In this document: piece by piece, positions 6,795 through 46,859 of the stretch | Layout: every line of letters begins with the position of its first letter | How positions within the stretch are numbered: position 1 is the first letter of the stretch | From: Escherichia coli | GTDB lineage: Bacteria; Pseudomonadota; Gammaproteobacteria; Enterobacterales; Enterobacteriaceae | DNA: 64,000 bases | Direction: 5' to 3' (one strand) | Assembly: GCF_003991155.1 (NCBI RefSeq) | Contig: NZ_CP031293.1 | The notes under the pieces: model-generated | The model's input: the letters and a program-made list of their open reading frames with translations, nothing else | Databases searched by the model: none | What the model was told of the DNA's origin: nothing | Program-made: the position numbers and the translations under genes

Positions 6795-7888
<1,094 letters not shown>

Positions 7889-9598: not shown

Positions 9599-9613
9599 TT
9601 GACGACTCCTGTC

Positions 9614-11519: not shown

Positions 11520-11533
11520 TTGATTTATATCAA
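11520..11533. promoter_or_regulatory. FNR-consensus site in the cydA upstream region
   Basis: TTGATTTATATCAA is a perfect TTGAT-N4-ATCAA palindrome, about 340 nt upstream of the cydA ATG. cydAB is known to be controlled by FNR and ArcA. Confidence 0.55.
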
Positions 11534-12932: not shown

Positions 12933-13012
12933 TTTTTATATATTCCCTGTGGCAAATATTGCTAAACAATGCCCGGGGATTAATTTTTATTACTCACGGA
13001 AAGATTTAAATA

Positions 13013-13435: not shown

Positions 13436-13981
13436 ATCCACCCAGTCGCGAAAATGGCCTGCGTTATTGCCAGAGGTAATAAAACCTTTGATTAACGTTA
13501 CTCATACTGGTAGCACCTTCATGTACCTCTCTTTTTTACGAAAAATCAAAAGAGCTAACTAAGGTCATAATTCGCATGAATCATTAACCATTTGTTATTT
13601 TCAACATTATTTTTACATTAAGCAGAGATGAATTGCAGTGAAATTCGACTTAAATTTTATGAAATGCATTTACTCATGGCTAAACCCATATCACTAAAAT
13701 GCAAATTAGAAGTAGATCACAAATACCTCAATACACCAAATCAAGTTAATTTTAAAAATTTAACATTCATGACATTAGTTGACATAACACACTGAATTAA
13801 CATGAGAATTTAACAACATACTTTAAACAATCATTTCCCGAAAGACATTTTGAAAATAGATCAATTGCAACATTACGGTCAGATAAAGACACTCCTGTGA
13901 TATTAAACCTGTGCCGTTATGAACGGCCATAAATACGACGTGTGTAACTTATTTTACTCTCTGTCTTACAAAGGATTACCC

Positions 13982-14431
13982 ATGAAGAAAGCAACACTTG
14001 TGATTGGCGTTATTGGCGCGGACTGCCATGCAGTAGGCAATAAAGTTCTGGACCGCGTTTTTAGCAACCATGGCTTCAGAGTCATTAATCTGGGCGTAAT
14101 GGTCAGCCAGGACGAATATATTGATGCGGCCATTGAAACTGGCGCTGACGCGATTGTCGTCTCCTCTATCTATGGGCATGGCGATATCGACTGTCTGGGC
14201 ATGCGCGAACGCTGCATCGAGCGTGGACTGGGGGACATCCTGCTCTATGTGGGCGGTAACCTGGTGGTCGGAAAACATGACTTCGCTGACGTGGAAACCA
14301 AATTCAAAGAGATGGGATTTGATCGCGTCTTTGCCCCAAGTCATGACTTAGAAGATGTTTGTCAGCTGATGGCACACGATATCAACCAACGTCATGACGT
14401 TGATACTCGTATTCTTGAAGAGGCAATCTGA
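13982..14431 (+). CDS. glmS: Glutamate mutase sigma (B12-binding) subunit
   Basis: ORF trimmed to ATG 13982 (AAGGA 7 nt upstream). [24 protein letters not shown] carries the DxHxxG cobalamin-binding motif. Size and position match clostridial MutS/GlmS. This is not the glucosamine-6-P synthase glmS. Confidence 0.9.
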
Positions 14432-15819: not shown

Positions 15820-15837
15820 CAATTAAGGCTGCAATCA

Positions 15838-18524: not shown

Positions 18525-18527
18525 CAA

Positions 18528-19898: not shown

Positions 19899-20212
19899 AA
19901 CAGTCAATTGTCTCACTGGCGCAAGTCATTCGTTCGAAAAATGCCGGACCTTACGAACTGGTTTTAGATATTTTATTTAAAACGAAAGAAAACTATGAGC
20001 GAGTTAAATCATCAGGGCAATTAACCCCAGAACTGATTGCGCGCTTATATCATGTTGAACCTGACTTTATTCACCGTATTGTCTGGTTTGATCCTTCTAA
20101 CGCAGTAAAAATCGTCATGCCACGAGATATTATCTCCGGGAATGTAGGTGACAATGATGTCTATGGTGCACAGCAACATGCACCTTTATTAAATATGAGT
20201 TTCGATTTGTAA
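19895..20212 (+). CDS. Conserved small protein, tentatively DUF4387 (AtuA C-terminal-like)
   Basis: 105 aa with an ATGA overlap onto the preceding ORF. The motifs IRSKNAGPYEL and DVYGAQQHAPLL resemble what I recall of DUF4387. Confidence 0.75.
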   Translation: MKQSIVSLAQVIRSKNAGPYELVLDILFKTKENYERVKSSGQLTPELIARLYHVEPDFIHRIVWFDPSNAVKIVMPRDIISGNVGDNDVYGAQQHAPLLNMSFDL

Positions 20213-20372
20213 AAATCCGAATACTTTTAGCCAACTGACATCCCGTCACTTATTGCAGTTCAACACTTCAGCTATTTGTAAGGTTGTAATAGCAGGTAGA
20301 TGCCTGAATCTCTATTCAGGCATCTACTTCTCCTGATTCTGATTTATCGCCGTGCACCTGATGGAGGAAAAA

Positions 20373-21653
20373 ATGAAGAAAATAAGTTTAACCACGATGA
20401 TTCTTTTGGCGCTGGTACTTGGAATGATTATCGGCGTAGTGCTCAATAACACTGCTTCACCGGAAACCGCAAAACTCTATGCGCAAGAAATATCGATATT
20501 CACGACGATTTTCTTACGACTGATAAAAATGATTATCGCTCCGTTAGTGGTCTCTACCCTGGTGGTAGGTATAGCTAAAATGGGAGATGCCAAAGCCCTT
20601 GGTCGTATTTTTTCTAAAACACTCTTTTTATTTATTTGCGCCTCATTGCTGTCAATTGCCTTAGGCTTGATAACGGTAAATTTCTTCATGCCAGGCACAG
20701 GAATTAATTTTGTTGCACACGGTGCCGAAACCACCGGAGTGGTCGCGTCAGAACCCTTTACACTAAAAGTATTTATTTCGCATGCTTTCCCCACCAGCAT
20801 TGTCGATGCCATGGCACACAATGAAATTTTGCAAATCGTGGTGTTCTCAATTTTCCTCGGCTGTAGCCTGACGGCGATTGGTGAGAAAGGCAGCGCCATC
20901 GTTCACGCCTTAGATTCGCTGGCACATGCCATGTTAAAGCTCACTGGCTACGTCATGCTCTTCGCTCCCCTGACCGTATTCGCCGCTATTTCAGCATTGA
21001 TTGCTGAACGAGGACTGGCAGTTATGGTGAGCGCCGGGATCTTTATGGGTGAATTTTATTTCACCATGTTGTTACTTTGGGTGCTGCTTATCGGTCTGGC
21101 CATCGTTTATGTCGGCCCCTGCATCAGACGCCTGACCCGTGCCCTTTCGGAACCCGCCCTGCTGGCATTTACCACATCCAGTTCTGAAGCGGCTTTTCCG
21201 GGAACGCTTGAAAAACTGGAGCAATTTGGCGTTTCCCCCAAAATTGCCAGCTTTGTCTTACCCATTGGCTACTCATTTAATCTCGTTGGATCAATGGCCT
21301 ACTGCTCCTTCGCCACAGTTTTCATCGCCCAGGCCTGCAATATCCATTTATCCATCGGTGAGCAAATCACCATGCTGTTGATCCTGATGTTGACCTCGAA
21401 AGGAATGGCTGGCGTACCACGCGCCTCAATGGTGGTTATCGCCGCCACGCTCAACCAGTTCAATATTCCGGAAGCGGGGCTGATCTTGCTGATGGGCGTT
21501 GATCCGTTCCTTGATATGGGGCGTTCCGCGACAAACGTCATGAGCAACGCAATGGGCGCTGCGATGGTGAGTCGGTGGGAAGGCGAACATTTCGGCGAGG
21601 GCTGTCGGGGTAAAGCATTAAAACCCAATGAATCGAACGTTGCTCTGCCCTGA
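20373..21653 (+). CDS. Dicarboxylate/amino acid:cation symporter (DAACS family, DctA/GltP-like)
   Basis: Start moved to ATG 20373 (GGAGG 5 nt upstream). 426 aa, polytopic, with TSSSEAAFP and GYSFNLVGS motifs typical of DctA/GltP carriers. Confidence 0.88.
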   Translation: MKKISLTTMILLALVLGMIIGVVLNNTASPETAKLYAQEISIFTTIFLRLIKMIIAPLVVSTLVVGIAKMGDAKALGRIFSKTLFLFICASLLSIALGLITVNFFMPGTGINFVAHGAETTGVVASEPFTLKVFISHAFPTSIVDAMAHNEILQIVVFSIFLGCSLTAIGEKGSAIVHALDSLAHAMLKLTGYVMLFAPLTVFAAISALIAERGLAVMVSAGIFMGEFYFTMLLLWVLLIGLAIVYVGPCIRRLTRALSEPALLAFTTSSSEAAFPGTLEKLEQFGVSPKIASFVLPIGYSFNLVGSMAYCSFATVFIAQACNIHLSIGEQITMLLILMLTSKGMAGVPRASMVVIAATLNQFNIPEAGLILLMGVDPFLDMGRSATNVMSNAMGAAMVSRWEGEHFGEGCRGKALKPNESNVALP

Positions 21654-21760
21654 GGGGGATCTTAAGCAATCAGAAGCCAATGACTACGCATTTTTATAAG
21701 CCGGATCATGAAGTTAGACGGCAATTAAGTAAAACTAACGTTTAAGGTGAAAAGTGAAAT

Positions 21761-23413
21761 ATGTCCAAACCATTTATCTGGCAAGAACCGTTTCTACAAA
21801 ATAAAGACGGTACAGAATATACATTAATTAGCGATCAACATATTACAGTAACGGAATTAGACGGCGAAGAAGTGATAAAAATCGCTCCTGAAGCATTAAC
21901 GCTGCTTGCCCGGCAGGCATTTTATGAAGCCTCTTTTTTCTTACGTTCCGCTCATTTGCAACAGGTCGCCAGCATTCTTAACGATCCGCACGCCAGTAGT
22001 AATGATAAATACGTTGCGTTGCAGTTATTACGTAATGCTGAAGTCTCAGCAAAAGGGGTATTACCCAACTGTCAGGATACCGGCACCGCAACTATTGTTG
22101 CCAGTAAAGGGCAACAGATATGGACCGGAGGTAACGACGCTGAAGCCTTAAGCAAAGGCATTTACACCACTTTTCAGGAAAATAATCTGCGCTTTTCACA
22201 AAATGCGCCACTGGATATGTATACCGAAGTCAATACGCAAACCAATCTACCGGCGCAGATTGATATCAGCGCCGTCGCTGGTGATGAGTACCATTTTCTC
22301 TGTATTAATAAAGGGGGCGGCTCTGCCAATAAAGCCGCGCTTTATCAGGAAACCAAATCCCTATTGCAACCAGAAAAACTGACCGCATTTTTAATCGAAA
22401 AAATGAAATCGCTGGGCACCGCTGCCTGCCCGCCTTACCACATCGCCTTTGTCGTCGGAGGGCTTTCAGCCGATCAAACCTTAAAAGTTGCCAAGCTGGC
22501 CTCAACGAAATATTACGACAATTTGCCCACCAGCGGAAACGAGCAAGGACAAGCATTCCGTGATATTGAGCTGGAAAAAGTATTGCTCGAGGCCAGTCAG
22601 CAATTTGGTATTGGTGCGCAATTTGGGGGTAAATATTTCGCTCATGATATTCGCGTCATTCGTCTGCCGCGTCACGGTGGCTCTTGCCCGATAGCTATGG
22701 CGCTCTCCTGTTCTGCGGATCGCAATATCAAAGCAAAAATTAACAAGCACGGTATCTGGCTGGAAAAACTCGAACACAATCCGGGGCAATATATTCCAGC
22801 CTCACTGCGGGAAGAAAATCACGCGCAACATGTACAGCTGGATCTAAACCGTCCGTTGCGTGACGTGATGCAGGATCTCGCCAGATTACCGGTAGGCACC
22901 CGCGTGTCGTTAAGTGGTCCCATCGTAGTGGCGCGCGATATCGCCCACGCCAAAATAAAAGCGCGGCTGGATAGCGGCGAACCGATGCCGGATTACCTGA
23001 AGCATCATATTGTCTATTACGCTGGCCCGGCGAAAACACCGGAGAACATGGCCTGCGGTTCACTGGGTCCAACCACGGGCGGTCGAATGGACGGTTATGT
23101 CGATACCTTCCAGGCGGCTGGCGGCAGTCTGGTGATGTTATCGAAAGGTAACCGCAGCCAGCAGGTCACCGATGCCTGTCACAAACATGGCGGCTTCAAT
23201 CTGGGGAGTATTGGCGGTGCAGCTGCGTTACTGGCGCAAGAATATGTCAAAAGTCTGCGTTGCCTGGAATACCCGGAGCTGGGTATGGAAGCGGTGTGGA
23301 TGATGGAAGTGGAAAATTTACCCGCATTCATCCTGGTAGATGATAAAGGCAATAATTTCTTTAGTCAGTTTGAGCAGCAACACCGCTGCGCCAGTTGCCC
23401 TGCGGGACATTAA
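21761..23413 (+). CDS. fumD: Class I (Fe-S) fumarate hydratase paralogue, probable mesaconase
   Basis: 550 aa, FumA/FumB-like ([19 protein letters not shown]). Its position in a methylaspartate operon matches the FumD mesaconase/fumarase described for E. coli O157:H7. Confidence 0.88.
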
Positions 23414-23422
23414 GGAAAATGA

Positions 23423-24025
23423 ATGGAAGCGCGAATTTCAACTGAACGGCATGTGCAGCGCCAGCAGAAATTGAAGGAACAGGTCGATACGCGCGTCGCG
23501 GCGGCGATAGAGAAAAAAGGGATTTTGATTGTTTTCACCGGCAACGGCAAAGGGAAATCCACTGCCGCGTTTGGTACTGTGACGCGCGCGGTGGGTCATG
23601 GCAAAACGGTGGGGGTTGCGCAGTACATCAAGGGGCAATGGGACAACGGCGAATACAACCTTCTCCAACCGCTGGGGGTTGAGTTTCATATTATGGGAAC
23701 CGGTTTTACCTGGGAGACACAGAACCGGCAAGCGGATATCGACGCGGCGAAAGAGGTCTGGTCGGAAAGCAAACGGATGCTGGCTGACAAGCGTTACGAC
23801 TTAGTGGTGCTTGATGAGCTGACCTATATGCTGGCTTACCATTATCTGGACACCGAAGAAGTGATCGCTTCTCTGCAAAACCGCCCGGCACAACAAAGTG
23901 TCATTGTCACCGGACGCGGTTGCCACAGTCAGATATTAAAAATGGCGGATACGGTCAGCGAAATCCGCCCCGTCAAACATGCTTTTGATAACGGCATTCA
24001 GGCGCAGCCGGGTATCGACTGGTAA
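23423..24025 (+). CDS. ATP:cob(I)alamin adenosyltransferase, CobA/BtuR type
   Basis: 200 aa with P-loop GNGKGKSTAAFG and DELTY, the same size as BtuR. It would supply adenosylcobalamin for glutamate mutase. Confidence 0.88.
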   Translation: MEARISTERHVQRQQKLKEQVDTRVAAAIEKKGILIVFTGNGKGKSTAAFGTVTRAVGHGKTVGVAQYIKGQWDNGEYNLLQPLGVEFHIMGTGFTWETQNRQADIDAAKEVWSESKRMLADKRYDLVVLDELTYMLAYHYLDTEEVIASLQNRPAQQSVIVTGRGCHSQILKMADTVSEIRPVKHAFDNGIQAQPGIDW

Positions 24026-24028: not shown

Positions 24029-24060
24029 CTGCGCCTGGCATCCCGCCAGGCGCAGGTTTT
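24029..24060. terminator. Hairpin terminator between the convergent adenosyltransferase and LysR genes
   Basis: ctgcgcctggc-atccc-gccaggcgcag followed by gtttt, immediately after the 24025 stop. Confidence 0.7.
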
Positions 24061-24964
24061 ACATCTCCTGCGGTACGACCGATTTCGCCAGCAACCATTC
24101 ACGAAATTGCTGCAAGTGCGGTGAGTCAGACTTCTCTTCCTGCCACGTCATAATAAAACGATTACCGGTACGAATAGGCACATCACAGGGAATCACCATA
24201 TCGCCACTATCCAAATCATGTTGAATAGCGAACCGTGGTAACAGCGCCACGCCGAGATTAGAGCGCACGGCGGCAATCAGCATTGAAAGCAAATCGAAAC
24301 GTGGTCCGTTATTGACCAGCGGACTGCTAACGCCAGATAAAGCAAACCACTCTTCCCAGCCAGTAATACGGGTGCTTTGATGCAGAAGTGGTAACTCAGT
24401 AAGCAGTTCTGCCACTGACAGTTTTTGATCGGACATTGCAAGCAAACTGCCGCTGCATACCGGCAAAATCTCCTCATCAAAGAGATATTCTACTTCCGCC
24501 CAGGGCGCGCAAAAATTTTCGCGCATAATGACAGCATCGTACTCCCGATTAAGAAAATCGCCGTTATTAGCTAAAGAATGAATATTAACAATAATATCGG
24601 GATGTAACTTTGTGAATTCATGTAAATTTGGGATTAACCAGTGGGTACTAAAAGTAGGATTAACGGCAAGTTCAATAACCTGAACCGTAGGCTGCCAGGT
24701 CATAATGGTATTGGTATCGCGTTCCAGCTTATTTAATGTTTCTTTTACTATCCCCAGGTAATACTTCCCTGCATCATTAAGAAAAATGCGTTTTTTAGAG
24801 TGTGAAAATAACGGAGTACGTAAAAATTCCTCCAGCGCACTTACTTGTCTGAATACTGCACTTTGGGTTAACGCTAACTCCTCTGCCGCTCTGGTATAAC
24901 TTTCATGACGTGCGACGACCTCAAAAGTCACCAGCAGTTCCGTTTTAGGTATTTTTCCTCGCAT
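24059..24964 (-). CDS. LysR-family transcriptional regulator
   Basis: 301 aa with an N-terminal wHTH (ESYTRAAEELALTQSAVFRQVSALEEFL) and a LysR substrate-binding domain. Confidence 0.9.
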   Translation of the reverse strand: MRGKIPKTELLVTFEVVARHESYTRAAEELALTQSAVFRQVSALEEFLRTPLFSHSKKRIFLNDAGKYYLGIVKETLNKLERDTNTIMTWQPTVQVIELAVNPTFSTHWLIPNLHEFTKLHPDIIVNIHSLANNGDFLNREYDAVIMRENFCAPWAEVEYLFDEEILPVCSGSLLAMSDQKLSVAELLTELPLLHQSTRITGWEEWFALSGVSSPLVNNGPRFDLLSMLIAAVRSNLGVALLPRFAIQHDLDSGDMVIPCDVPIRTGNRFIMTWQEEKSDSPHLQQFREWLLAKSVVPQEM

Positions 24965-24981
24965 AATGCCTTCCCTTAAAA

Positions 24982-24995
24982 ATAGTTGAAACTAT
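24982..24995. promoter_or_regulatory. Palindromic candidate LTTR box
   Basis: ATAGTT-GA-AACTAT perfect inverted repeat 18 nt upstream of the LysR ATG. It fits the general T-N11-A architecture. Confidence 0.35.
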
Positions 24996-25026
24996 CAAAA
25001 AACCATTACTTATTGCTAAGTAATGG
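24996..25026 (-). terminator. Rho-independent terminator at the end of the hut-like operon
   Basis: The minus strand reads ccattactta-gcaa-taagtaatgg (10-bp perfect stem) followed by TTTTTTG. It lies about 210 nt downstream of the 25235 stop. Confidence 0.7.
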
Positions 25027-25234
25027 CAACCAAAGCAGCAATCAATATTTTATAAAAATCATGTTCGATATTTATAACCTGGTAAGCCTGGCGTGACAAT
25101 TGTCTCAATCAGACAATAATAATCCGAAAAGCAAAACGCCCTTCGGATTATTATGATTCAAGTTAAGTGAAGATTATTAAATTGATAGCAATTATCATAT
25201 CTATGGATATTATGACAAACAATCAACAAAAATT

Positions 25235-26905
25235 TTATTTTTGATTTATAGCATATCCTTCTAAGAATTTTTGCGAAGCTGCAATATCTGGGGTAAAGAC
25301 CCGATCCTGGTCGACAAACGGCACGACTTTTCTGTATTCGGTAAACATTGCTTTGGTGGATTTCCCTAATGCCAGTTGTGGATCGGCCTGCAACCGTAAA
25401 TCGAGAGCCTGTGCGGAATGCATCAGTTCAATGCCATAAATCACGTTCAGATTATCGACAACCTGTTTCAATCTTCTGGCCGCGTGGTCATTATTGGCAC
25501 CGGTATCTTCTATACCTCCGGCAACCGGTTGAATATCGAAAGAAACCGGGTTAGCGAGATCGACATTTTCCGCATGCAGCGCAACAAACGGGATATGTAA
25601 TGAACCGAAGCCATGACCTTTATTACCTGCTGCCGACAGGAAGCGTGACAAACCGGTAAAGTGATCATCTTCAAGATGCAGCGAGCGGCGCATACTGTTA
25701 TGTGAAACATGCACTAACGCCACGGTCAGACGCTGGGTGGCAAGCGCAACCGGTAACGATTCGAAATTCGCCGTCGGGAAGATCCCACCGCTGATTGCCC
25801 CATCTTTAACAAAATATTGCGCGACCTGACTGGAGTCCTGATACGCTTTGTCTGCATTCAGCACGGTTGCCGGGTTGTCATCGGAACTGTTGATCTGCAC
25901 GGTAATGGTATCTTCAGCATCGCGCAACGCGCGCATTGCCTCAGAAATGGTATACACCGTCGTTCTGAACGATAACGGATCCTGCAATGCACGTTTGTCA
26001 TGCTTATGCCATAAATAAGAACCACTTAACGCATCGCGAATCTCTTTAGCGGAATCAGCCAACTGCGGGAAAGGACGCACGGCGATCGACTGCGGCAGTA
26101 CCGGCGCGACATTGCCATTCAACGCTTCCAGACTCATAGCGAAAACCACCGGGCTGACATTCAGCAACTGACGTGCCGAACGAACAGCTTCGATAGCGTA
26201 GGCTGTCCCGACGCTGTTGTTCGATAAAATCGCCAGCATATCTTTACCCTGCGGTACCAGTGGCTTAAGTCCCACTTTCGCCAGCGCGTCACCACCGCTC
26301 ATTTGCACGCCATTTACTCGGGCTTTCCATTCCCCCATCATCACCAGACCAACGTGCGAAGCGAGCATAATATCCGCTGCGCCGATACTTCCCCGCACCG
26401 GAATTAACGGTGTAACGCCGCGATTAATAAATTCGGCATACAACTCGGCAATATAAGGCTGTGCGCCGGTTTGCCCATGCAGCATGGTATTTAAACGTAA
26501 TACCATTGAAAGGCGTGCCAGATAATCCGGTAACATCGGACCAACGCCCGCAGAATGGGCGCGCAGCGCGGCAGCATTAAATTTTTTCGACGCGTCAATC
26601 ACCTCAGGCGTTAAATTTCCTTTGGCATCAAATATGGGCTGATCTTTATTTAGCCCCACGCCCACGGTTAAGCCATAAACAGGCGTACCTGAATGCGCGG
26701 CAGTCATCACCAGATCATAACTTTTTTCCATGCGCTCCATGGCGTTCGACGCGATTTTGACGCCGTTATCACCTAATGCAATTGACCAGGCCTGGTCAAT
26801 GGAAAGATGTTCGCCATCCAGCGTAATGGTTGATTTCGCCATCGCAATGGAGCAAACGCTCCAGAGCACAACGGTGACAGTGACTCTTCGTATCAATCCT
26901 TTCAT
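25235..26905 (-). CDS. Secreted (periplasmic) histidine/phenylalanine ammonia-lyase-fold protein lacking the MIO Ala-Ser-Gly triad
   Basis: 556 aa with AAGGA 6 nt upstream. Sec signal MKGLIRRVTVTVVLWSVCSIAMA|KS. It aligns to HutH (YGLTVGVG, LRAHSAGVG, QDPLSFR, DDNP), but GSVGASGDLAPLAH is replaced by GSIGAADIMLASH. Confidence 0.85.
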   Translation of the reverse strand: MKGLIRRVTVTVVLWSVCSIAMAKSTITLDGEHLSIDQAWSIALGDNGVKIASNAMERMEKSYDLVMTAAHSGTPVYGLTVGVGLNKDQPIFDAKGNLTPEVIDASKKFNAAALRAHSAGVGPMLPDYLARLSMVLRLNTMLHGQTGAQPYIAELYAEFINRGVTPLIPVRGSIGAADIMLASHVGLVMMGEWKARVNGVQMSGGDALAKVGLKPLVPQGKDMLAILSNNSVGTAYAIEAVRSARQLLNVSPVVFAMSLEALNGNVAPVLPQSIAVRPFPQLADSAKEIRDALSGSYLWHKHDKRALQDPLSFRTTVYTISEAMRALRDAEDTITVQINSSDDNPATVLNADKAYQDSSQVAQYFVKDGAISGGIFPTANFESLPVALATQRLTVALVHVSHNSMRRSLHLEDDHFTGLSRFLSAAGNKGHGFGSLHIPFVALHAENVDLANPVSFDIQPVAGGIEDTGANNDHAARRLKQVVDNLNVIYGIELMHSAQALDLRLQADPQLALGKSTKAMFTEYRKVVPFVDQDRVFTPDIAASQKFLEGYAINQK

Positions 26906-26955
26906 TGTGTTTCCTTATCATGATGAGTTTAACAACGGGTTACTGCGACAACGTT

Positions 26956-27906
26956 TTAATTTGTTCTATCTGTTTTCCCCCGCCGGACAATACTGGTCAC
27001 CAGGCGAGCGGCAACTTTCGCAGTTAAATTATCGCGGTCCAGGTCCGGGTTAAGTTCGGCAATATCCGCAGCAATCAACTTCTCGCTACCGGCGATTAAA
27101 TTCACAATGGCTTCAGTAATATTTAACGGCACGCCTAACGGTGATGGAGCAGAAACACCGGGCGCCTGATAACCTGGTAAAACATCGAGACAAATCGTTA
27201 AATAAATGGCGTCACAAGCCTGAATATCTGCCGAGAGCGCATTAGCGATCTCATGCAAACCACGTTCAAATTGCAGAGATTCGTCCAGCCAATAACGCAC
27301 ACCGAGACAATCAGCGCGATCAAATAACGCCTGAGTATTGGCAAAACGACTTATTCCCAGCACGCGATAATGAAACGGTTTGCCATGCTGCGCGTTCCAC
27401 TCTTGCATCTGACGAAACGGCGTACCTGAATTGGCTTGTTCCGCCATCCGTAAATCAAAATGCGCGTCAAGGTTCACAATCAGTAACCGCTGAATATCCG
27501 GACGCGACTGCATAATCCCCTGAAATGTTCCCCACGCCACTTCATGACCGCCCCCCAGAACCACCGGTAAACTGCCGCGCGCAATGGCTGTAGATACGTT
27601 AGCCGCCAGACGATTTTGTGCGGATTCCAGCGCGTGGTCCTCGCTTTGTACATCGCCCATATCGAAAATAGCGCCTTCACAGAGCACTGGCATATTTCCC
27701 AACATGCTGCGCAACGCGCCCGGTCCGCCTGCTGCACCCGCTCGCCCATCATTACGTTGCACTCCGTCATCAACGGCAAAACCAATCAGCGTACAACCGC
27801 CGTGGCTTTGTTCACTAAACGGTTGCACATGCTGATGCCAGCGAGTGCTGATGCCGGTTTCCTGCGAGTCAACACGCCCACTCCACGGCAAAAATGTTTG
27901 CTTCAT
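26956..27906 (-). CDS. hutG: Formimidoylglutamase (arginase fold)
   Basis: Start trimmed to ATG 27906 (AAGGAG upstream; TAATG overlap with the hutI stop). 316 aa with Mn-site motifs GGGHEVAWG, DAHFD and CLDVL. Confidence 0.88.
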   Translation of the reverse strand: MKQTFLPWSGRVDSQETGISTRWHQHVQPFSEQSHGGCTLIGFAVDDGVQRNDGRAGAAGGPGALRSMLGNMPVLCEGAIFDMGDVQSEDHALESAQNRLAANVSTAIARGSLPVVLGGGHEVAWGTFQGIMQSRPDIQRLLIVNLDAHFDLRMAEQANSGTPFRQMQEWNAQHGKPFHYRVLGISRFANTQALFDRADCLGVRYWLDESLQFERGLHEIANALSADIQACDAIYLTICLDVLPGYQAPGVSAPSPLGVPLNITEAIVNLIAGSEKLIAADIAELNPDLDRDNLTAKVAARLVTSIVRRGKTDRTN

Positions 27907-29117
27907 TACCAACTCCTTTTTCCGCCGACAATAAGCCCCTGGCAAGGCTGATGCCCAAACCAGTAAGCCAGTTCACGTGGATGATTAAGATCCCAGACCG
28001 CCATATCCGCCCGTAATCCCGGTGCAAGTTCACCCCGGTCAATAAGTCCAAGTGCCTTTGCCGCATTACGCGTAACGCCCTGAACGGCTTCCAGCGGCGT
28101 CATGCGAAACAGCGTACAGGCCATATTGATCATCAATGGCAATGACATATTGGGAGACGTTCCGGGATTATGGTCCGTGGAGATAGCAATCGGCACACCT
28201 GCGGCCCGCAGAGCGACAATCGGCGGCAGATGGGTTTCGCGCAGGAAGTAATAAGCACCGGGAAGCAAAACCGCCACTGTTCCAGCCGCTTTCATGGCGG
28301 CGATCCCCGACTCGCTCAGGTACTCCAGATGATCGCAGGAGAGTGCAGAAAACGCCGCTGCCAGCGCCGCGCCTTGCTGGTCAGAAAGCTGTTCGGCATG
28401 CAGTTTTACAGGTAATCCATAGCTTTGCGCTTTACTGAAAACGCGCCGTACCTGCTCTGGAGTAAAGGCGATGTTTTCACAAAAAGCATCAACTGCATCA
28501 ATCAGCCCCTGTTCATGCAACACGCACATCCAGTCGCAAAGCGCCGTAATGTAATCATCACTGCGCCCGGCAAACTCTGGCGGCAGGCTGTGCGCCCCGA
28601 GAAACGTAGACTGAATATGTAACCCGGTAGATTGCTGCAAGCGGCGGATCACGCGTAAACAACGTGCTTCATCTTCCAGCGTTAAGCCATAACCCGATTT
28701 GATTTCAAGCGTACTGACGCCTTCACGTTGCCAGTTTCGCAGTCGCTGCGCCGCCAGTTCAAACAACTGTGTTTCGCTGGCTGCCCGCGTGGCATTAACC
28801 GTAGATAAGATCCCGCCGCCCGCTCTGGCGATATCTTCATAAGCCACGCCTTGCAACCGCATCTCAAACTCGTTCGCCCTCTGGCCGCCATACACCAGAT
28901 GTGTATGACAATCCACCAGACCGGGTGTCAGCAACTTACCCTGTAGATCGTGTTCCTCTGTAATATCAGCCGTCAGTTCACGGGGGATCTGCGTGGCCTT
29001 CCCAAGCCAGACAATCGAGTCACCACGGCTGATTAATGCCCCCTTTTCAATCACTCCCCAATCGTTAGCGGAAAGCGTCGCCAGCGTGGTATTTCGCCAG
29101 AGCGTTAATGCACTCAT
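27906..29117 (-). CDS. hutI: Imidazolonepropionase
   Basis: Start trimmed to ATG 29117 (ATGA overlap with the hutD stop). 403 aa; VDCHTHLVYGG metal site; amidohydrolase fold. Confidence 0.9.
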   Translation of the reverse strand: MSALTLWRNTTLATLSANDWGVIEKGALISRGDSIVWLGKATQIPRELTADITEEHDLQGKLLTPGLVDCHTHLVYGGQRANEFEMRLQGVAYEDIARAGGGILSTVNATRAASETQLFELAAQRLRNWQREGVSTLEIKSGYGLTLEDEARCLRVIRRLQQSTGLHIQSTFLGAHSLPPEFAGRSDDYITALCDWMCVLHEQGLIDAVDAFCENIAFTPEQVRRVFSKAQSYGLPVKLHAEQLSDQQGAALAAAFSALSCDHLEYLSESGIAAMKAAGTVAVLLPGAYYFLRETHLPPIVALRAAGVPIAISTDHNPGTSPNMSLPLMINMACTLFRMTPLEAVQGVTRNAAKALGLIDRGELAPGLRADMAVWDLNHPRELAYWFGHQPCQGLIVGGKRSW

Positions 29118-29704
29118 AAGGATTTTTCCCCTCGTAGATAATAAAGCCACCAGCCCGCCAGCTCACCGACGGAGACTTTCTTCCGTGGTACGAAACGCCA
29201 GGGCCTGCCATCAGGTGCAACCAGCCATAACAACATATTTGCCGCGACAAACACCCTTTTCTTGCCGCTTATCCACTCCCCTTCACACAGCGTGAACAGG
29301 CCCGCTTGCGCAAGTGACGGAGGACGCCAGTCAACGGCACTTTGCACCCGCAACATCCCCGCATCGCCTTCCCGCGCCATAACATTCAGATCGCGAACCC
29401 CGCCGCCCAGCAGCTGGCAATCAGGCATAGCTTCTCCAGGGAAAATTAAGGCGGGATCGTGACGTTGCAGGTTGATGATCGAATCGGCAAACGTTAGCTT
29501 CACCCCTTCCCCGTCGAGAATCGCGAGGCCACGAACCACGCCAGGCCACGCTGAAAAAGAGCCATCCTGACTGACATTCGCCATACTGATGCGCAACAAC
29601 CAGTTTTCATCATCGGGCCAGGCAAGCAGCTGTCGGGTAAACCCCCCGCCGTTGCGCCACGGTTGCAGCGGCTTATCCATTGCAGAAATCAGCATCGGTT
29701 CCAT
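29114..29704 (-). CDS. hutD: HutD-family protein
   Basis: 196 aa. The WRNGGGFTRQL motif and bicupin size are typical of HutD. It starts 1 nt after the permease stop. Confidence 0.8.
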   Translation of the reverse strand: MEPMLISAMDKPLQPWRNGGGFTRQLLAWPDDENWLLRISMANVSQDGSFSAWPGVVRGLAILDGEGVKLTFADSIINLQRHDPALIFPGEAMPDCQLLGGGVRDLNVMAREGDAGMLRVQSAVDWRPPSLAQAGLFTLCEGEWISGKKRVFVAANMLLWLVAPDGRPWRFVPRKKVSVGELAGWWLYYLRGEKSL

Positions 29705-29705
29705 A

Positions 29706-31115
29706 TTAAGACTCGGGATAAATCGTATAAGCAGGAACGCAGGTGGTGCGTTTGGCCCACGGGTAATAGATAACGGCGGTAATTAACAAGCCGACAATCC
29801 AGGAGATATCCGCCCCATCCATCAGGACAGAAATGGGTCCCTGATACAGTTTTTGATTCAGGAAGGGGATCTGCACCAACACGCCTACGCCATAGCACGT
29901 CAAAGCGGTTTTGTTATACGCGCCATAACGCCCTTCCGGGGTATAAAGTGCCGGAATATCGGTTTTACCTTGTGAGATGAAGTAGTAGTCGATGAGATTA
30001 ATGGCGCTCCACGGCACAAATACCGTCAACAGCAGCAGAACGAAGTTTTTGAAATTATTCAAAAAATCTGCGCTTGCCGCCAGCGCGACGACCATCGACA
30101 ACAGCACGAACCCTACAACGTAGGCAGCACGAACACGCTGTGAAACCTGACTGCGATTATTAAAGGCGCTGACGGTCGCCAGAATCGACATAAAGCCACC
30201 GTAGGCATTCAAACAGTTCACCGTCAGTTTGCCGCAAACAATCACCGTATAAATCAGAATGGCGAAGGTGGGTCCGGCTAACTCACCCATAAAACCAACC
30301 TGATCCTTCAGGAAGTTAGCACCACAGGCCGCAACAAGCACGCCAAACGTCATGGCACATTGCGCGCCAAGCGTGGTTCCCAGAAAGGTGGCAAAGAAGA
30401 TTGATTTTGCTGGCGTATCAGAGGGTAAATAGCGGGAATAATCAGAGGCGTAAGGGGCAAACGTTAATTGCCATCCGGCAGAGAGAGCAATCGTTAATAA
30501 AAAGACCGACAGACTAAATGGCTTTTGACCAAATGCCGCAGCCACATCGTAGTGACCGCTAAGTTGAGTGGCCAGGTAAATAAACCCCAGAATACTTAAT
30601 ATCCCTGCAACACGGCCAACGACGTGAATAAGTTTATAACCGACCAATGCGATCATCGCGGTCAGCATGCCGAAAATAATAATTCCGGTCGATGCCGATT
30701 CGAAACCAAATATCCGGTTAATCGCCTGACCGGATAATACTGTACCCGTCGCGGCAAATCCAAGGTACATAATAATCACCATCAGTAACGGTAGCGCCGC
30801 TCCTTTAACGCCAAAGCGGATACGACTGGAGATCATCTGGGGTAATCCCAGCTTTGCCCCCTGCGACGAGTGCAATGCCATTACTGCACCACCAATAATA
30901 TTACCGATTAATAAACCAATTATTGCTGACATGGCTTCGGAGCCAAAAATAATCGCTAACGCGCCGTCCACCACAGCGGTAATTTGTAAGTTAGCACTTA
31001 GCCATAAAGTAAACTGACTGGATGGCGAGCCGTGGCGAGCAGACTCAGGAACGGCGTTAATCGTATTTGATTCTAATACTGGCTTTTTACTGCGGATAGG
31101 GCTGCTTGATTCCAT
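29706..31115 (-). CDS. NCS1/purine-cytosine permease family transporter, candidate urocanate importer
   Basis: Start trimmed to ATG 31115 (AGGAG 8 nt upstream). 469 aa, about 12 TM segments. Pseudomonas hut clusters carry an NCS1 permease next to hutU that has been linked to urocanate uptake. Confidence 0.8.
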   Translation of the reverse strand: MESSSPIRSKKPVLESNTINAVPESARHGSPSSQFTLWLSANLQITAVVDGALAIIFGSEAMSAIIGLLIGNIIGGAVMALHSSQGAKLGLPQMISSRIRFGVKGAALPLLMVIIMYLGFAATGTVLSGQAINRIFGFESASTGIIIFGMLTAMIALVGYKLIHVVGRVAGILSILGFIYLATQLSGHYDVAAAFGQKPFSLSVFLLTIALSAGWQLTFAPYASDYSRYLPSDTPAKSIFFATFLGTTLGAQCAMTFGVLVAACGANFLKDQVGFMGELAGPTFAILIYTVIVCGKLTVNCLNAYGGFMSILATVSAFNNRSQVSQRVRAAYVVGFVLLSMVVALAASADFLNNFKNFVLLLLTVFVPWSAINLIDYYFISQGKTDIPALYTPEGRYGAYNKTALTCYGVGVLVQIPFLNQKLYQGPISVLMDGADISWIVGLLITAVIYYPWAKRTTCVPAYTIYPES

Positions 31116-31278
31116 GAAAAAGTCTCCTGCAAAATGAGAGGTCATTTTTTGAAACAGCAATAGAGGGTCGGGAGATATTTCTCTCGACGATGTAAAAATA
31201 TTTTTTGATAATTATTGTTATACAGGCGAATTATTCTCCGCCTGTATTAGCGCAAATATTAAATGACGGCGTTAATAT

Positions 31279-32976
31279 TTAGCGAATCATCGGTAATTTC
31301 AGACCATAGTTTTTGGCACATTCAATTGCCGCTTCATAACCCGCATCCGCATGACGCATAACCCCGGACGCACAGTCATTCACCAGCACACGCGCCAGAC
31401 GTTTTTCGGCTTCTTCGCTACCATCGGCAACAATAACCATCCCGGCGTGTTGTGAATACCCCATCCCGACGCCGCCGCCATGATGCAGGGATACCCACGT
31501 TGCTCCCCCTGCAGTGTTGAGCAAACCGTTGAGCAACGGCCAGTCAGAAACCGCATCACTGCCATCAAGCATGCTTTCGGTTTCGCGGTTCGGGCTGGCG
31601 ACAGAACCGGTATCAAGATGATCGCGCCCAATCACAATCGGTGCTTTTAGTTCACCGTTGCGCACCATTTCGTTGAATGCCAGCCCCGCCAGGTGACGCT
31701 CACCAAGCCCCAGCCAGCAAATACGTGAAGGAAGTCCCTGGAAGGCAATGCGCTCGCGCGCCATATCCAGCCAGCGATGCGTCAGTACGTTATTGGGGAA
31801 CAACTCTTTAATTTTGGCATCAGTTTTATAGATATCTTCCGGGTCGCCAGACAGCGCCACCCAACGGAATGGACCTTTGCCTTCACAAAACATTGGACGA
31901 ATATAAGCCGGAACAAAGCCCGGGAAATCAAAGGCATTTTGCAGACCTTCGTTGAAGGCCACCTGGCGGATGTTGTTGCCATAATCGACAACCGGGATCC
32001 CCATCGCCTGGAAGTCCAGCATCCCCTGAACATGTGCGACGCAGCTCTGTGCCGCTTCTTTTTGCAATCTGGCGTGTTGCTGTGGATCCTGCTGTGCAGC
32101 GCGCCATTGTTCTACGCTCCAGCCCATCGGTAGGTAGCCATAAACCAGATCGTGAGCGGAAGTCTGGTCGGTCACCAGATCCGGCTTGATCGCCCCCTGA
32201 CGTGCACGTTTCACCAGTTCAGGAACAATTTCCGCCGCATTGCCCAACAGCGCGATTGAAACAGCGTCTTTGCGCTCAGTATGGTATTTAATCAGCGCCA
32301 GTGCATCATCGAGATCTTTCGCTTGTTTATCGACATAACGGGTACGCAGACGGAAGTCGATGCTACTTTGCTGGCACTCGATATTTAATGAACACGCCCC
32401 CGCCAGAGTCGCCGCCAGCGGTTGTGCACCGCCCATACCACCTAGCCCTGCGGTCAGGATCCATTTTCCACTCAGCGAATTGTTGTAGTGCTGACGACCC
32501 GCTTCAACAAAGGTTTCGAACGTTCCCTGCACAATGCCCTGACTACCGATGTAGATCCACGAGCCAGCGGTCATCTGGCCGTACATGAACAGACCTTTAC
32601 GATCCAGTTCATTGAAATGATCCCAGTTGGCCCATTGCGGTACCAGGTTAGAGTTGGCAATCAATACGCGCGGCGCATCGGTATGCGTTTTAAACACGCC
32701 TACGGGTTTACCGGACTGAACCAGCAGTGACTCATCAGCTTCCAGATTTTTCAGTGATTCAAGGATTTTGTCAAAACACTCCCAGTTACGTGCCGCACGA
32801 CCAATACCACCATACACCACCAGATGCTGTGGATTTTCGGCAACGTCGGGATCAAGGTTGTTCTGCAACATCCGATAGGCAGCTTCGATCTGCCAGTTTT
32901 TGCAGTGCAGCTGCGTACCGTGTGGCGCATGGATTACACGGCTGGTATCAATACGCGGGTCTGAAGGCTTACTCAT
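31279..32976 (-). CDS. hutU: Urocanate hydratase
   Basis: Start trimmed to ATG 32976 (AGGAGA upstream). 565 aa with the [18 protein letters not shown] site. Urocanase family throughout. Confidence 0.93.
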
Positions 32977-33733
32977 GAATCTTCTCCTGTTACTTGATAA
33001 AATTAAACGCTGTAATCGGTCAGAAAAAACGAACGAATGAATATAGAAACGGTTTCTATAATTCCCGTTTATCATTTTGTATTATTAATTCATTTAGTGA
33101 ATATTGTTTGTCGTGGTATATTCACTATGAATATAAATTCAAAACCACCAACGCGTTGTATGCGAATTCAATATGCTTAATTTAACTTGTCGAAAAAGTG
33201 ATATTGTTGGCAAAATATTTTCTAATTTGAACATATGAATATGATGAGATTGCAAGATGTCAGTAATTTAATTATATGAGAAATGCGTTAATAACGACCA
33301 GATATTAGCGTAACAACAGGTGTTCCGACACCACACAGTGCGCATAACACAATGATATTTAAAATAAGATCTTCATTATTCGTCATAAAGACATGTTTTA
33401 TTATCATTAATAATCCATTTGTTTTCATCCCACTTTTGATAATTAAAAAACGGCAACAATGGATAGTTACCCGACGTAAAAACAGGCGTAAAAATAAATC
33501 TTAAAATATATCCACTGGAAATTATCATTTTTCATATTTTACAATCTGGCGTCGATAACTGACCCCTTTTATAACACCCCCGTTTGTTAATAGTCTTTTT
33601 TATCTTGTATTGATCGTCATTGCTGCATACACTACGCGCGTTTTCTTTCCCTTTTGCTGGCTGCTGACCGGAAAGACAAAATTACCCTCGCAATAAAGGG
33701 GGTTGTTTAACGTCTATATTTCAGGACAGCGTT

Positions 33734-35131
33734 ATGCATCATCTTTCAAGGCTTGATAAAGCCTTTCTGCGCAAAGGGATCCAACTTTCCCGCGCCAACA
33801 ATATTGTTTCATTATGTCGTCCATCAGGAGCCAGTGCCCACGTACTGCTGCCGGACGAACTGCCGCTGGAAGAAAAAGCAGTGACACAACTGCTTGATTT
33901 TGCAGAAGTGAAGATACCAGACCATCCAGGTTACGTACGCCAGACCTGTGCGACGCCAGATTTTCATCCCGGCAATGGCGTCCCCGTTGGCGCGGTAGTC
34001 GCCTCTACGCCGGATTTAGTCATTCCTGCGGCCATCGGCACCGATATTTCTTGTGGCATGCGGCTGCTGACGACCGGATTAACACTTGAGCAAGCCGAAG
34101 CGAATAAAGAAATAATCACTCAGCGGTTAACACAAGTGTTACTGCAAAATGAGCGCGATGTTCCGTTATCCGCACGAGCGTTCACCGCGCTTTTTGATGG
34201 CGGACCGGCAGATTGCATGTCGGCCTTGCCATCAGCAGGTCTCTGGACACGTACAAATATCCCCCGAATGACGCAAGAGATTGACCGCTGCATTGGGCTT
34301 AACGAGCATAACAGTCATTCGCGTTATGCCCCACCCGCCCTACTGGTAACGGACCGCCCATTACTCCGCGATCCTTGTCTTGGTACGCCGGGTTCAGGTA
34401 ATCATTTTATTGAACTTCAGGTGGTTGATAGCGTGGTTGATCGCCATGTTGCCTGGCAACAAGGGCTGAAAACGGGCGATATTGTGGTGATGATCCACAG
34501 TGGATCGCGAGATGTTGGCTTTTACGTCGGAAGACGCTGGATGGATCGCGCCCGTGCTGAATGGCCCACCGGACATAAACATCCACAAAGCGGGTTATAT
34601 GGCCTGGCAGGCGGACTGGCGGAGGAATATCTACAAGCGATGGGAATGGCGGCGCGTTACGCGTGGTTAAATCGCGTCACAATTGCCGAAATGGTGCGCG
34701 TATGTCTTGCCAATCTCTTTCATCAGGACAATTCGCATCTGGTGGTGGATGTGCCGCATAACATCATCCTTCGCGAGCATGAAATGAATATTCATCGCAA
34801 AGGTGCAACACCGGCACGCGCGGGCAATCTGGCGTTAATCCCCGGTTCAATGGGCGATTATTCGTGGCTTGCAGTCGGTTGCGGCAACCCGGAGTGGCTG
34901 TGGTCTTGCAGTCACGGAGCAGGACGCAGCCAGCGTCGGCAGGCCATGCACTCACGCGCGACTGAAGAGTCAACGTTGCCGTGGCAATGCGTCACATTGC
35001 GCGAAGAACGGCGTATTGAAGAAGCGCCAGCTGCTTATAAAGATATTGGTCCGGTTATCGAAGCCCAACAAGAGGCCGGATTAATTCATCCAGCGGTTAG
35101 ATTCCGACCGTGGTTAACGTTTAAGGCATAA
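33734..35131 (+). CDS. RtcB-family RNA 3'-phosphate ligase paralogue (stand-alone)
   Basis: 465 aa. RtcB signature blocks are conserved: PDFHPG, GTDISCGMR, GSGNHFIELQ, IHSGSRDVG, PHNII, HRKGATPA, IPGSMG, SHGAGR. Confidence 0.88.
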   Translation: MHHLSRLDKAFLRKGIQLSRANNIVSLCRPSGASAHVLLPDELPLEEKAVTQLLDFAEVKIPDHPGYVRQTCATPDFHPGNGVPVGAVVASTPDLVIPAAIGTDISCGMRLLTTGLTLEQAEANKEIITQRLTQVLLQNERDVPLSARAFTALFDGGPADCMSALPSAGLWTRTNIPRMTQEIDRCIGLNEHNSHSRYAPPALLVTDRPLLRDPCLGTPGSGNHFIELQVVDSVVDRHVAWQQGLKTGDIVVMIHSGSRDVGFYVGRRWMDRARAEWPTGHKHPQSGLYGLAGGLAEEYLQAMGMAARYAWLNRVTIAEMVRVCLANLFHQDNSHLVVDVPHNIILREHEMNIHRKGATPARAGNLALIPGSMGDYSWLAVGCGNPEWLWSCSHGAGRSQRRQAMHSRATEESTLPWQCVTLREERRIEEAPAAYKDIGPVIEAQQEAGLIHPAVRFRPWLTFKA

Positions 35132-35229
35132 AAAAAGGCCATCATATGATGGCCAACCATGTCGAAACCGACAGCCCTTCGCCATTCCTGTAGAGGGAAG
35201 CGGCGAGGGCTATTTCTTATTACAGATAT
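35131..35229 (-). ncRNA. sdhX: sucD 3'-UTR-derived sRNA SdhX (RybD) with its intrinsic terminator
   Basis: The 99 nt between the sucD stop and GGCCATCATATGATGGCC-TTTTTTT (hairpin 35137-35154) match the position and about 100-nt length I recall for SdhX. Sequence identity was not verified. Confidence 0.55.
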
Positions 35230-36099
35230 TTATTTCAGAACAGTTTTCAGTGCTTCACCGATATCCGCCAGGCTGCGAACGGTTTTCACGCCTGCGGCTT
35301 CCAGAGCAGCGAATTTCTCATCCGCAGTCCCTTTCCCACCGGCAATGATCGCACCTGCGTGACCCATACGTTTGCCTTTCGGCGCAGTCACACCAGCGAT
35401 GTAACCTACAACTGGCTTGGTAACGTGCTCTTTGATGTATGCAGCCGCTTCTTCTTCAGCGCTACCACCGATCTCACCGATCATCACGATCGCTTCGGTC
35501 TGCGGATCTTTTTCGAACATTTCGAGGATGTCGATAAAGTTAGAGCCAGGGATCGGGTCGCCGCCGATACCAACACAGGTCGACTGACCGAAACCGTAAT
35601 CCGTGGTCTGTTTAACCGCTTCATAGGTCAGTGTACCGGAACGGGAAACGATACCCACTTTACCCGGTTTGTGAATGTGACCAGGCTGGATACCGATTTT
35701 GCATTCACCCGGAGTGATAACGCCCGGGCAGTTCGGGCCGATCATGCGAACGCCCGCTTCATCCAGTTTCACCTTCACGGTCAGCATATCCAGCGTCGGG
35801 ATGCCTTCAGTGATGGTGATAATCAGTTTGATGCCTGCATCAATAGCTTCCAGAATGGAGTCTTTGCAGAACGGTGCTGGTACGTAGATAACAGAAGCGG
35901 TAGCGCCAGTAGCAGCAACAGCTTCACGCACGGTGTTGAACACCGGCAGGCCGAGGTGGGTGGTGCCGCCTTTACCTGGGGTTACGCCGCCAACCATTTT
36001 AGTGCCGTATGCAATAGCCTGTTCTGAGTGGAAAGTCCCCTGGCTACCGGTAAAGCCCTGGCAGATAACCTTGGTGTTTTTATCAATTAAAATGGACAT
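35230..36099 (-). CDS. sucD: Succinyl-CoA synthetase alpha subunit
   Basis: 289 aa, matching SucD. Confidence 0.97.
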
Positions 36100-46813: not shown

Positions 46814-46826
46814 AAATGACACCGAC

Positions 46827-46856: not shown

Positions 46857-46859
46857 GTT

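Follow-up and report, generated by a model that had tools for sequence, protein, structure and literature searches.

A hut-like operon of an Escherichia coli accessory island is predicted to feed on histidine betaine through a periplasmic MIO-less lyase

The hut-like operon analysed here lies on the minus strand, at 25235-32976, of a 64,000-nt stretch of Escherichia coli DNA (assembly GCF_003991155.1, contig NZ_CP031293.1), which is called the window below. The interval consists of six genes: hutU, a gene for an NCS1-family permease, hutD, hutI, hutG and a gene for a lyase of the histidine ammonia-lyase (HAL) family, which carries a predicted signal peptide and is devoid of the triad of the 4-methylideneimidazole-5-one (MIO) cofactor. 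In our reading, to which we assign a probability of about 0.6, the operon splits histidine betaine (hercynine) in the periplasm into urocanate and trimethylamine, the NCS1 permease imports the urocanate, and HutU, HutI and HutG convert it to glutamate and formamide. An earlier interpretation of the window (the sequence-only reading) named five of the genes and placed the entry point of the pathway at urocanate, but it left out the sixth gene, at 25235-26905. Its entry point holds for the cytoplasmic part of the pathway, which starts with urocanate at the inner membrane; given the lyase, the true feedstock is probably histidine betaine.

According to the proposed mechanism, hercynine would reach the periplasm, and the lyase would be exported there by its Sec-type signal peptide. 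The enzyme would remove trimethylamine from hercynine by an E1cb/E2-type elimination with Tyr77 as the base, giving trans-urocanate; as trimethylammonium is a good leaving group, the MIO would not be needed for this reaction. The HutTu-like NCS1 permease would bring urocanate into the cytoplasm, where HutU, HutI and the arginase-type HutG would turn it into L-glutamate and formamide, while trimethylamine would leave the cell. The glutamate would be available to the methylaspartate (glutamate fermentation) genes of the same island. Hercynine as the substrate, the transport of urocanate and the link to glutamate fermentation are all inferred. The operon should also permit the use of free urocanate; because it ends with a signal-peptide-bearing MIO-less lyase, urocanate is probably an intermediate rather than an environmental substrate.

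The lyase gene (25235-26905, minus strand) encodes a protein of 556 amino acids (aa) that belongs to the aromatic-amino-acid-lyase family (Pfam PF00221, E-value 2.4e-123) and for which we predict the activity of a histidine betaine (hercynine) trimethylammonia-lyase. On the hutH equivalog model TIGR01225 it scored 281 bits against a cutoff of 539, and HutH of Comamonas, used as a control, scored 664 bits. The Ala-Ser-Gly (MIO) triad was not found in the lyase, which has GSIGAADIM where HAL has GSVGASGDLA. Its motif at this site is one residue shorter than that of HAL, as in the ergothionase of Treponema denticola (6S7J; SSIGEGDIT). The same ergothionase is the nearest solved relative by sequence (E-value 5.5e-85 compared with approximately 1e-49 for HAL). 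It is also the top PDB fold match of the AlphaFold model of the lyase (predicted local distance difference test, pLDDT, 86.6), with template modelling (TM) scores of 0.82/0.91; HAL structures come next, the matches having TM scores of 0.8-0.9. The claim of the sequence-only reading that the operon has no canonical histidase is thus literally correct, although a histidase-family enzyme ends the operon.

The N-terminus of the lyase, MKGLIRRVTVTVVLWSVCSIAMA followed by K at the predicted cleavage point, shows the features of a Sec-type signal peptide: K2, R6 and R7, a hydrophobic core and A-M-A (A-x-A) directly before the K. The predicted signal peptide, assigned on the N-terminal charge, the hydrophobic core and the A-x-A motif, comprises codons 1-23 (26837-26905, minus strand). 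Such a presequence is present in 99 of the 120 closest homologues, while the Enterococcus forms begin directly at the mature domain. In the AlphaFold model, residues 1-22 lie outside the folded domain. From these features we infer that the lyase is exported by a Sec-type signal peptide. Alternatively, the lyase could start at Met22 and act in the cytoplasm on betaine that the NCS1 permease itself imports. The short start is used in some database entries (P0002 and P0006, 535 aa) and the Enterococcus homologues are cytoplasmic, but the long start is preceded by a good ribosome-binding site, and the hydrophobic presequence is kept in an 85% homologue as well as in the 99 relatives mentioned. Moreover, orthologues of the permease occur in canonical hut clusters devoid of such a lyase, in which importing a betaine would make no sense, and we regard cleavage inside the cell as very unlikely.

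Several relatives of the predicted periplasmic hercynine lyase have been characterised in Shewanella. Swoo_3913 of Shewanella woodyi is a periplasmic MIO-less hercynine trimethylammonia-lyase, the urocanate from which goes to a periplasmic urocanate reductase (bioRxiv 10.1101/2025.08.13.670108). In Shewanella oneidensis, SO_3057 is a periplasmic ergothionase and the substrate of SO_3299 is N(pi)-methyl-hercynine (bioRxiv 10.64898/2026.04.22.720169). No histidase activity was found in Swoo_3913, SO_3057 or SO_3299 (bioRxiv 10.1101/2025.08.13.670108; 10.64898/2026.04.22.720169). In our dataset, SO_3057 is represented by P0112, which has the same length and the same termini as encoded by the published primers, and Swoo_3913 and SO_3299 by 50%-identity cluster representatives recognised via their numbered catalytic residues and termini. 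P0112 is 56% identical to the E. coli lyase, and the Swoo_3913-like representative P0244 is 42% identical.

The residues Y77, H117, Q308, R314, N339 and E466 of the E. coli lyase, which are counterparts of those listed for Swoo_3913, were invariant in an alignment of 26 sequences. By this correspondence, Tyr77 would be the base, His117 and Glu466 the ligands of the imidazole, and Gln308, Arg314 and Asn339 the ligands of the carboxylate. The site that discriminates between substrates is Lys384 of the Treponema enzyme, which binds the thiolate of ergothioneine and is reported to be essential; it is occupied by Asn (Asn439) in Swoo_3913 and by Gln in SO_3299 (10.1101/2025.08.13.670108; 10.64898/2026.04.22.720169). 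The E. coli lyase has Ile438 in this position (motif GFGSLHIPF). A motif of the AFGAIQ-K type (Gln-Lys) is present in 102 of its 120 closest homologues, and His-Ile or His-Val was found in E. coli, E. marmotae, P0007 (85% homologue), P0008 (68% homologue) and the Enterococcus group.

Because of the signal peptide, the absence of the MIO triad, 6S7J as the best solved relative and the 56% identity to SO_3057, we assign the E. coli lyase to the MIO-less trimethylammonia-lyases; judged from its sequence, it is not a histidase. A true MIO-less histidase that deaminates histidine in the periplasm would agree with membership in the HAL family and with the hut context, but the three characterised MIO-less relatives are inactive on histidine, and we give this explanation almost no credit. 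To our knowledge, every characterised ammonia-lyase acting on histidine (HAL), phenylalanine (PAL) or tyrosine (TAL) needs the MIO to eliminate ammonia, which also counts against it. In RefSeq, the lyase gene is labelled either 'HAL/PAL/TAL family ammonia-lyase' or 'hutH'. The MIO-less lyase is annotated as 'hutH: histidine ammonia-lyase' in NZ_CP163132.1 and NZ_CP148363.1, which is probably a misannotation.

The substrate is argued for most strongly by the co-variation of the partner genes with the type of lyase. All six of the Gln-Lys loci examined (E. albertii, a Burkholderiaceae bacterium, Parasutterella, Turicimonas, Sutterella and Desulfobaculum) adjoin genes for flavocytochrome c (the FAD subunit and a c-type cytochrome), the respiratory arrangement described for Shewanella. 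All three Glu-Lys loci (Pseudomonas lundensis L017, 4751-13090; Serratia L018 and L019) carry an ergothioneine catabolic cluster composed of genes for a LysR regulator, thiohydantoin desulfurase, thiourocanate hydratase, an MFS transporter, the lyase (AFGAMEK) and a second MFS transporter. Proteins of this cluster type score 1013 bits on the thiourocanate hydratase model NF058530 (cutoff 930) and 598 bits on the thiohydantoin desulfurase model (cutoff 440). The Lys-less lyase of E. coli is accompanied by a canonical HutU (934 bits on the hutU model, 670 on the thiourocanate model) and the NCS1 permease. Genes with FAD_binding_2 or FMN_bind domains, indicative of a flavocytochrome or a UrdA-type reductase, were not found in the E. 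coli island. On the metagenomic contig L006, a decayed remnant of hutU and an 85% homologue of the permease gene are followed directly by the 85% homologue of the lyase gene, and hutD, hutI and hutG are absent from the locus, so that the permease and the lyase form the conserved core. As a separate observation, the ergothionase-type lyase of L017-L019 has a signal-peptide-like N-terminus, which suggests periplasmic cleavage followed by the uptake of thiourocanate, the same logic as in E. coli.

The hutU gene (31279-32976, minus strand) starts with an ATG at 32976 preceded by an AGGAG ribosome-binding site and encodes a canonical urocanate hydratase of 565 aa (TIGR01228, 934 bits, cutoff 375). 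The calls of HutU, HutI and HutG are all based on scores above the NCBIfam equivalog cutoffs. HutU fails both the thiourocanate hydratase model NF058530 (670 bits, cutoff 930) and the S-methyl model NF058531 (671 bits, cutoff 880), and it is 83% identical to HutU of the canonical Comamonas hut cluster. S-methyl-ergothioneine was considered as a substrate and rejected because of the result for NF058531.

The result for NF058530 bears on the alternative of an ergothionase, perhaps identical with the E. coli activity that Wolff reported in 1962, which would release trimethylamine and thiourocanate in the periplasm. Among characterised proteins, the lyase is indeed closest to the ergothionase SO_3057 (56%), and in the neighbour-joining (NJ) tree (Kimura-type distances, 200 bootstraps) the His-Ile/Val clade groups with the Gln-Lys protein P0009 in 194 of 200 bootstraps (97%), inside the periplasmic Gln-Lys radiation. 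According to a 2026 paper, E. coli has no annotated ergothionase homologue and the 1962 report of an E. coli ergothionase is questionable (PMC13405746); the lyase gene contradicts the former statement at the level of the family. However, the E. coli lyase has Ile in place of the Lys that binds the thiolate and is reportedly essential in the Treponema enzyme, HutU does not reach the thiourocanate cutoff, which true ergothioneine clusters pass (1013 bits) alongside having thiohydantoin desulfurase, and the island is absent from E. coli W, which has a locus of the K-12 type. We consider an ergothionase unlikely. In a blastn search with the E. albertii gene against 5426 E. coli genomes, a Lys-containing ergothionase paralogue was not found, the weak cross-matches all falling on the same locus. 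If the enzyme of the His-Ile/Val clade also accepts ergothioneine, its gene could be the one behind the disputed report of 1962.

The permease gene (29706-31115, minus strand) encodes a protein of 469 aa (PF02133) that scores below all NCBIfam equivalog cutoffs for nucleobase, allantoin and cytosine transporters. It is 67% identical to the product of the NCS1 gene located between hutC and hutU in Comamonas testosteroni, in a cluster made up of a hutC-like gene, hutH, hutC, the NCS1 gene, hutU, hutD and hutI, in which HutH, HutC and HutU pass the equivalog cutoffs. The order hutU-hutD-hutI is common to the E. coli operon and the Comamonas cluster, and permease relatives of 60-72% identity are widespread. 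This identity bears out the suggestion of the sequence-only reading that the permease is of the hut-adjacent type. In Pseudomonas, HutTu (PA5099) was described as a urocanate-specific transporter (PMC12977541). The E. coli permease is a putative HutTu-type urocanate importer, matched to PA5099 by its position in hut clusters, not by sequence; as the product of a periplasmic lyase must be imported, a permease of this type would fit urocanate.

These data are also pertinent to a simpler explanation, in which the operon scavenges environmental urocanate through the permease and the lyase is a passenger or has an unrelated function. The permease, HutU, HutI and HutG would suffice for growth on urocanate, and the permease is of a type that is found in canonical hut clusters and whose Pseudomonas member HutTu is urocanate-specific (PMC12977541). 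Nevertheless, we find this improbable, as the lyase gene lies 50 nt past hutG with its own ribosome-binding site and no terminator ahead of it, the NCS1 and lyase pair is kept at 85% identity in L006 despite the decay of hutU and the loss of the other hut genes, and every characterised relative of the lyase yields a product of the urocanate type. Urocanate scavenging and betaine use are not mutually exclusive.

The phylogenetic analysis showed that the E. coli lyase and the Shewanella hercynine lyase belong to different branches. The Swoo_3913-like representative P0244 pairs with the SO_3299-like representative in 200 of 200 bootstraps and branches apart from the E. coli clade, and these separate branches mean that the E. 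coli clade lost the Lys independently of the Shewanella enzyme. It is conceivable, though doubtful, that the His-Ile/Val clade represents a fourth substrate class that evolved out of periplasmic ergothionases, separately from the Shewanella hercynine lyase, and was recruited in E. coli from making a respiratory electron acceptor to feeding cytoplasmic catabolism. The census of this clade from the genome-contig scan comprises only eight loci and is hence thin. In three Enterococcus loci (L002-L004, approximately 5518-12554), a His-Val lyase without a signal peptide accompanies a sigma-54 activator, a fused CoA transferase, an MFS transporter and a FabK/NMO-like flavoenzyme; such a cluster might serve to reduce the enoate product by a CoA-dependent route in the cytoplasm.

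Instead of hercynine, the lyase might take a different imidazole amino acid, N-alpha-alkylated or modified in another way (e.g., N-alpha,N-alpha-dimethylhistidine or a betaine not yet known), giving urocanate or an analogue acceptable to HutU. This would be a fourth specificity, and the His-Ile/Val motif fits none of the three characterised types (Lys, Asn and Gln); the case of SO_3299 illustrates how difficult it is to foresee specificity within the family, and the clade members of Enterococcus and of the P0008 contig have different neighbours. However, H117 and E466 are intact in the E. coli lyase, unlike in the SO_3299-like representative (RIQAAG, IDDTF), which argues against a ring-N-methylated substrate, and the canonical HutU, HutI and HutG need plain urocanate. 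We therefore treat another substrate as a minor possibility.

Several points weigh against hercynine cleavage in the periplasm as the function of the operon. The E. coli lyase is no orthologue of Swoo_3913, the one proven hercynine lyase (42% identity to P0244, on another branch), and it has Ile at the Lys384 site where Swoo_3913 has Asn. The absence of the Lys is no proof of hercynine specificity, because SO_3299 is also devoid of it, yet does not take hercynine (10.64898/2026.04.22.720169). The His-Ile/Val clade is monophyletic in 58% of the NJ bootstraps, and its other members adjoin no hut genes, being found in the Enterococcus clusters described above and, in the case of P0008, beside hydroxyproline-type genes. 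Furthermore, the start at Met22 in the annotations of P0002 and P0006 would make the lyase cytoplasmic. Finally, the activity, localisation and transport ascribed to the E. coli proteins are predictions.

The three remaining genes of the operon are hutD (29114-29704), encoding a HutD/Ves-family protein (PF05962, 107 bits; the RefSeq start is the ATG at 29695), hutI (27906-29117), encoding imidazolonepropionase (TIGR01224, 451 bits, cutoff 298), and hutG (26956-27906), encoding an arginase-fold formimidoylglutamase that yields glutamate and formamide (TIGR01227, 292 bits, cutoff 229), all on the minus strand. The genes are tightly linked: the junctions read on the minus strand are TAATATG at 29708-29702 (permease gene and hutD), ATGA at 29117-29114 (hutD and hutI) and TAATG at 27908-27904 (hutI and hutG). 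The sequence-only reading had reported these three stop/start overlaps, and all of them read as claimed; its urocanase, imidazolonepropionase, arginase-type formimidoylglutamase, HutD and NCS1 permease are borne out by TIGR01228, TIGR01224, TIGR01227, PF05962 and PF02133, respectively. The stop codon of hutG is separated from the ATG of the lyase gene by 50 nt, with an AAGGA ribosome-binding site ahead of the ATG and no hairpin or terminator in between. Two hairpins are located 3' of the lyase stop (24992-25152, minus strand), one at 25152-25114 with a 15-bp stem (-19.3 kcal/mol) and the other at 25027-25002 followed by a T run, and they likely mark the end of the operon. The 50-nt gap, the separate ribosome-binding site and the position of the hairpins only after the lyase stop make the lyase gene the last gene of the operon. 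A further stem-loop (31220-31247, minus strand), with a perfect 11-bp stem (-16 kcal/mol) and no T run, is situated in the gap from hutU to the permease gene; it may act in the processing or stability of the mRNA, and it may tune the expression of hutU relative to the downstream genes.

Upstream of hutU there is an AT-rich spacer of 757 bp (32977-33733), shared with a divergent gene of the RtcB family, which presumably holds the promoter and the operator. Sigma-70-like sites upstream of hutU were not enriched over shuffles, and consensus scans of 24900-33800 for promoters and terminators did not exceed the counts obtained with shuffled sequences. A perfect 10-nt inverted repeat, TAGTGAATAT-N13-ATATTCACTA, was found at 33095-33127, approximately 120-150 nt upstream of the hutU start. 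As 55 of 2000 shuffles contained a palindrome as good, which is a weak significance, and it is not conserved in L006, this repeat was not called an operator. The gene for a GcvA-like LysR-family regulator (24059-24964, minus strand; PF00126 and PF03466) lies outside the operon, beyond the two hairpins. Strains without the hut genes keep the same LysR gene next to cobO and the methylaspartate genes, so it is not specific to the hut operon; this weakens the proposal of the sequence-only reading that it regulates the operon, and we do not claim it as a dedicated hut regulator, although it remains a candidate. No linked HutC (GntR/UTRA) repressor was found in the 64-kb window, to which the search was confined, as had been stated before: the sole gene of the GntR family (53952-54665), part of a different cluster, encodes an FCD instead of a UTRA domain.

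The operon belongs to an accessory island flanked by sucD and cydA, a site that is occupied by mngRAB in K-12; for this locus, the earlier statement that K-12 is without hut genes is right. The order of the island is sucD, the RtcB-family gene, the hut-like operon, the LysR gene, cobO, the gene for class I fumarate hydratase, a dicarboxylate/amino acid symporter gene, DUF4387, an AtuA-family gene, the gene for methylaspartate ammonia-lyase, the glutamate mutase genes glmE, glmL and glmS, IS1, two hypothetical genes and cydA. The methylaspartate (mesaconate) pathway set (approximately 11000-24025) is a complete gene set for glutamate fermentation, with class I fumarate hydratase at 21761-23413 and cobO at 23423-24025. 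It is plausible, from adjacency only, that glutamate from the hut operon feeds these genes, and a route for histidine from hut to methylaspartate was described in gut anaerobes (10.64898/2026.06.22.733842). The RtcB-family RNA ligase paralogue (33734-35131, plus strand; PF01139, below all NCBIfam cutoffs) is a stand-alone gene divergent from hutU.

The region 25000-33800 is 100% identical in several complete E. coli genomes, e.g., strain 2016C-3878. Of 5426 complete E. coli genomes, 142 carry the full island, and many more have the methylaspartate part alone; 2016C-3878, MRY15-117 and LWY24 are examples of island-positive strains. Strain NZRM4169 has kept the methylaspartate part and the LysR gene, and its hut operon is absent; scars of the 3' end of the lyase gene (window 25235-25363 and 25715-25776) and of the 3' end of the RtcB gene remain between the LysR gene and sucD. 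In the scar comparison, L010 (15301-16300) matches the window at 24798-25363, 25715-25776, 34858-34914 and 35090-35396. Likewise, Escherichia whittamii (L020) keeps only the last 104 codons of the lyase. Because these 3'-end scars of the lyase and RtcB genes remain, the module of hut and RtcB was lost secondarily rather than never acquired. The RtcB gene was gained and lost together with the hut module, and we propose no functional link between them. In this strain, a copy of IS1 (IS1A, approximately 12400-13100; 1204928-1205625 in the RefSeq record) borders the island on its cydA side; the island of NZRM4169 is without it. A second accessory cluster (approximately 44900-54665) lies between gltA and abrB and contains genes for the GntR/FCD regulator (53952-54665), an RraA-family protein, a Zn-dependent alcohol dehydrogenase, a short-chain dehydrogenase/reductase, two UxaA-family hydrolases and a tripartite ATP-independent periplasmic (TRAP) transporter; it looks like a catabolic module for sugar acids or related compounds.

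A full-text search of the literature for hercynine or histidine betaine together with urocanate returned only the two Shewanella preprints, neither of which refers to hut genes, to a permease or to a counterpart in E. coli, and no description of the E. coli hut island was found in the searchable literature. The enzyme class and the Hut pathway are known, and periplasmic betaine cleavage feeding the cytoplasmic Hut pathway via a urocanate-type permease is an undescribed combination. Such a combination would account for a hut operon that functions in the absence of hutH, and would correct a likely annotation trap. It would also add the assimilation of nitrogen and carbon to anaerobic respiration as a role of the trimethylammonia-lyases, whose first descriptions date from 2019-2026, and place a member of the class in E. 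coli, contrary to the statement of PMC13405746 at the family level. The predicted route is strain-specific in a gut species and would lead from dietary or fungal hercynine to trimethylamine, the precursor of trimethylamine N-oxide. If it is real, a defined subset of gut E. coli strains would make trimethylamine from dietary histidine betaines, whether or not the enzyme also accepts ergothioneine. These predictions are testable by simple spectrophotometric and growth assays.

Among the known systems, Swoo_3913 is similar to the E. coli lyase in being periplasmic and MIO-less, in having the same catalytic Tyr, His, Gln, Arg, Asn and Glu residues and a neutral residue at the Lys384 site, and its reaction is the one predicted for E. 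coli. However, it is coupled to a periplasmic urocanate reductase in anaerobic respiration, and urocanate never enters the cell, whereas the E. coli enzyme is combined with a permease and the cytoplasmic Hut enzymes. SO_3057 and the T. denticola ergothionase (6S7J) are likewise without the MIO and share the fold and the catalytic base, and SO_3057 has a signal peptide, but they have Gln-Lys in place of the His-Ile of E. coli. The partners of ergothionases are flavocytochrome c in the respiratory type or thiourocanate hydratase in the catabolic type, while the partner in E. coli is HutU. The clusters of P. lundensis and Serratia resemble the E. coli operon in that they combine a signal-peptide-bearing lyase, a secondary transporter, a cytoplasmic hydratase of the urocanase family and an adjacent LysR gene; they differ in the retained Lys (AFGAMEK), in encoding thiourocanate hydratase and thiohydantoin desulfurase, and in having MFS transporters instead of NCS1. 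The canonical hut clusters of Pseudomonas and Comamonas (hutC, hutH, hutTu, hutU, hutD, hutI and hutF or hutG) have homologous HutU, NCS1, HutD and HutI in a similar order. Compared with them, the E. coli operon is without the MIO-type HutH and HutC, the arginase-type HutG of the four-step route replaces HutF, and a predicted periplasmic betaine lyase is added. The enteric hutUH-hutIGC system of Klebsiella and Salmonella follows the same four-step route via formimidoylglutamase to glutamate and formamide. It is located at the gal-bio locus, has a cytoplasmic HutH and the HutC repressor, and contains no NCS1 permease, HutD or periplasmic lyase.

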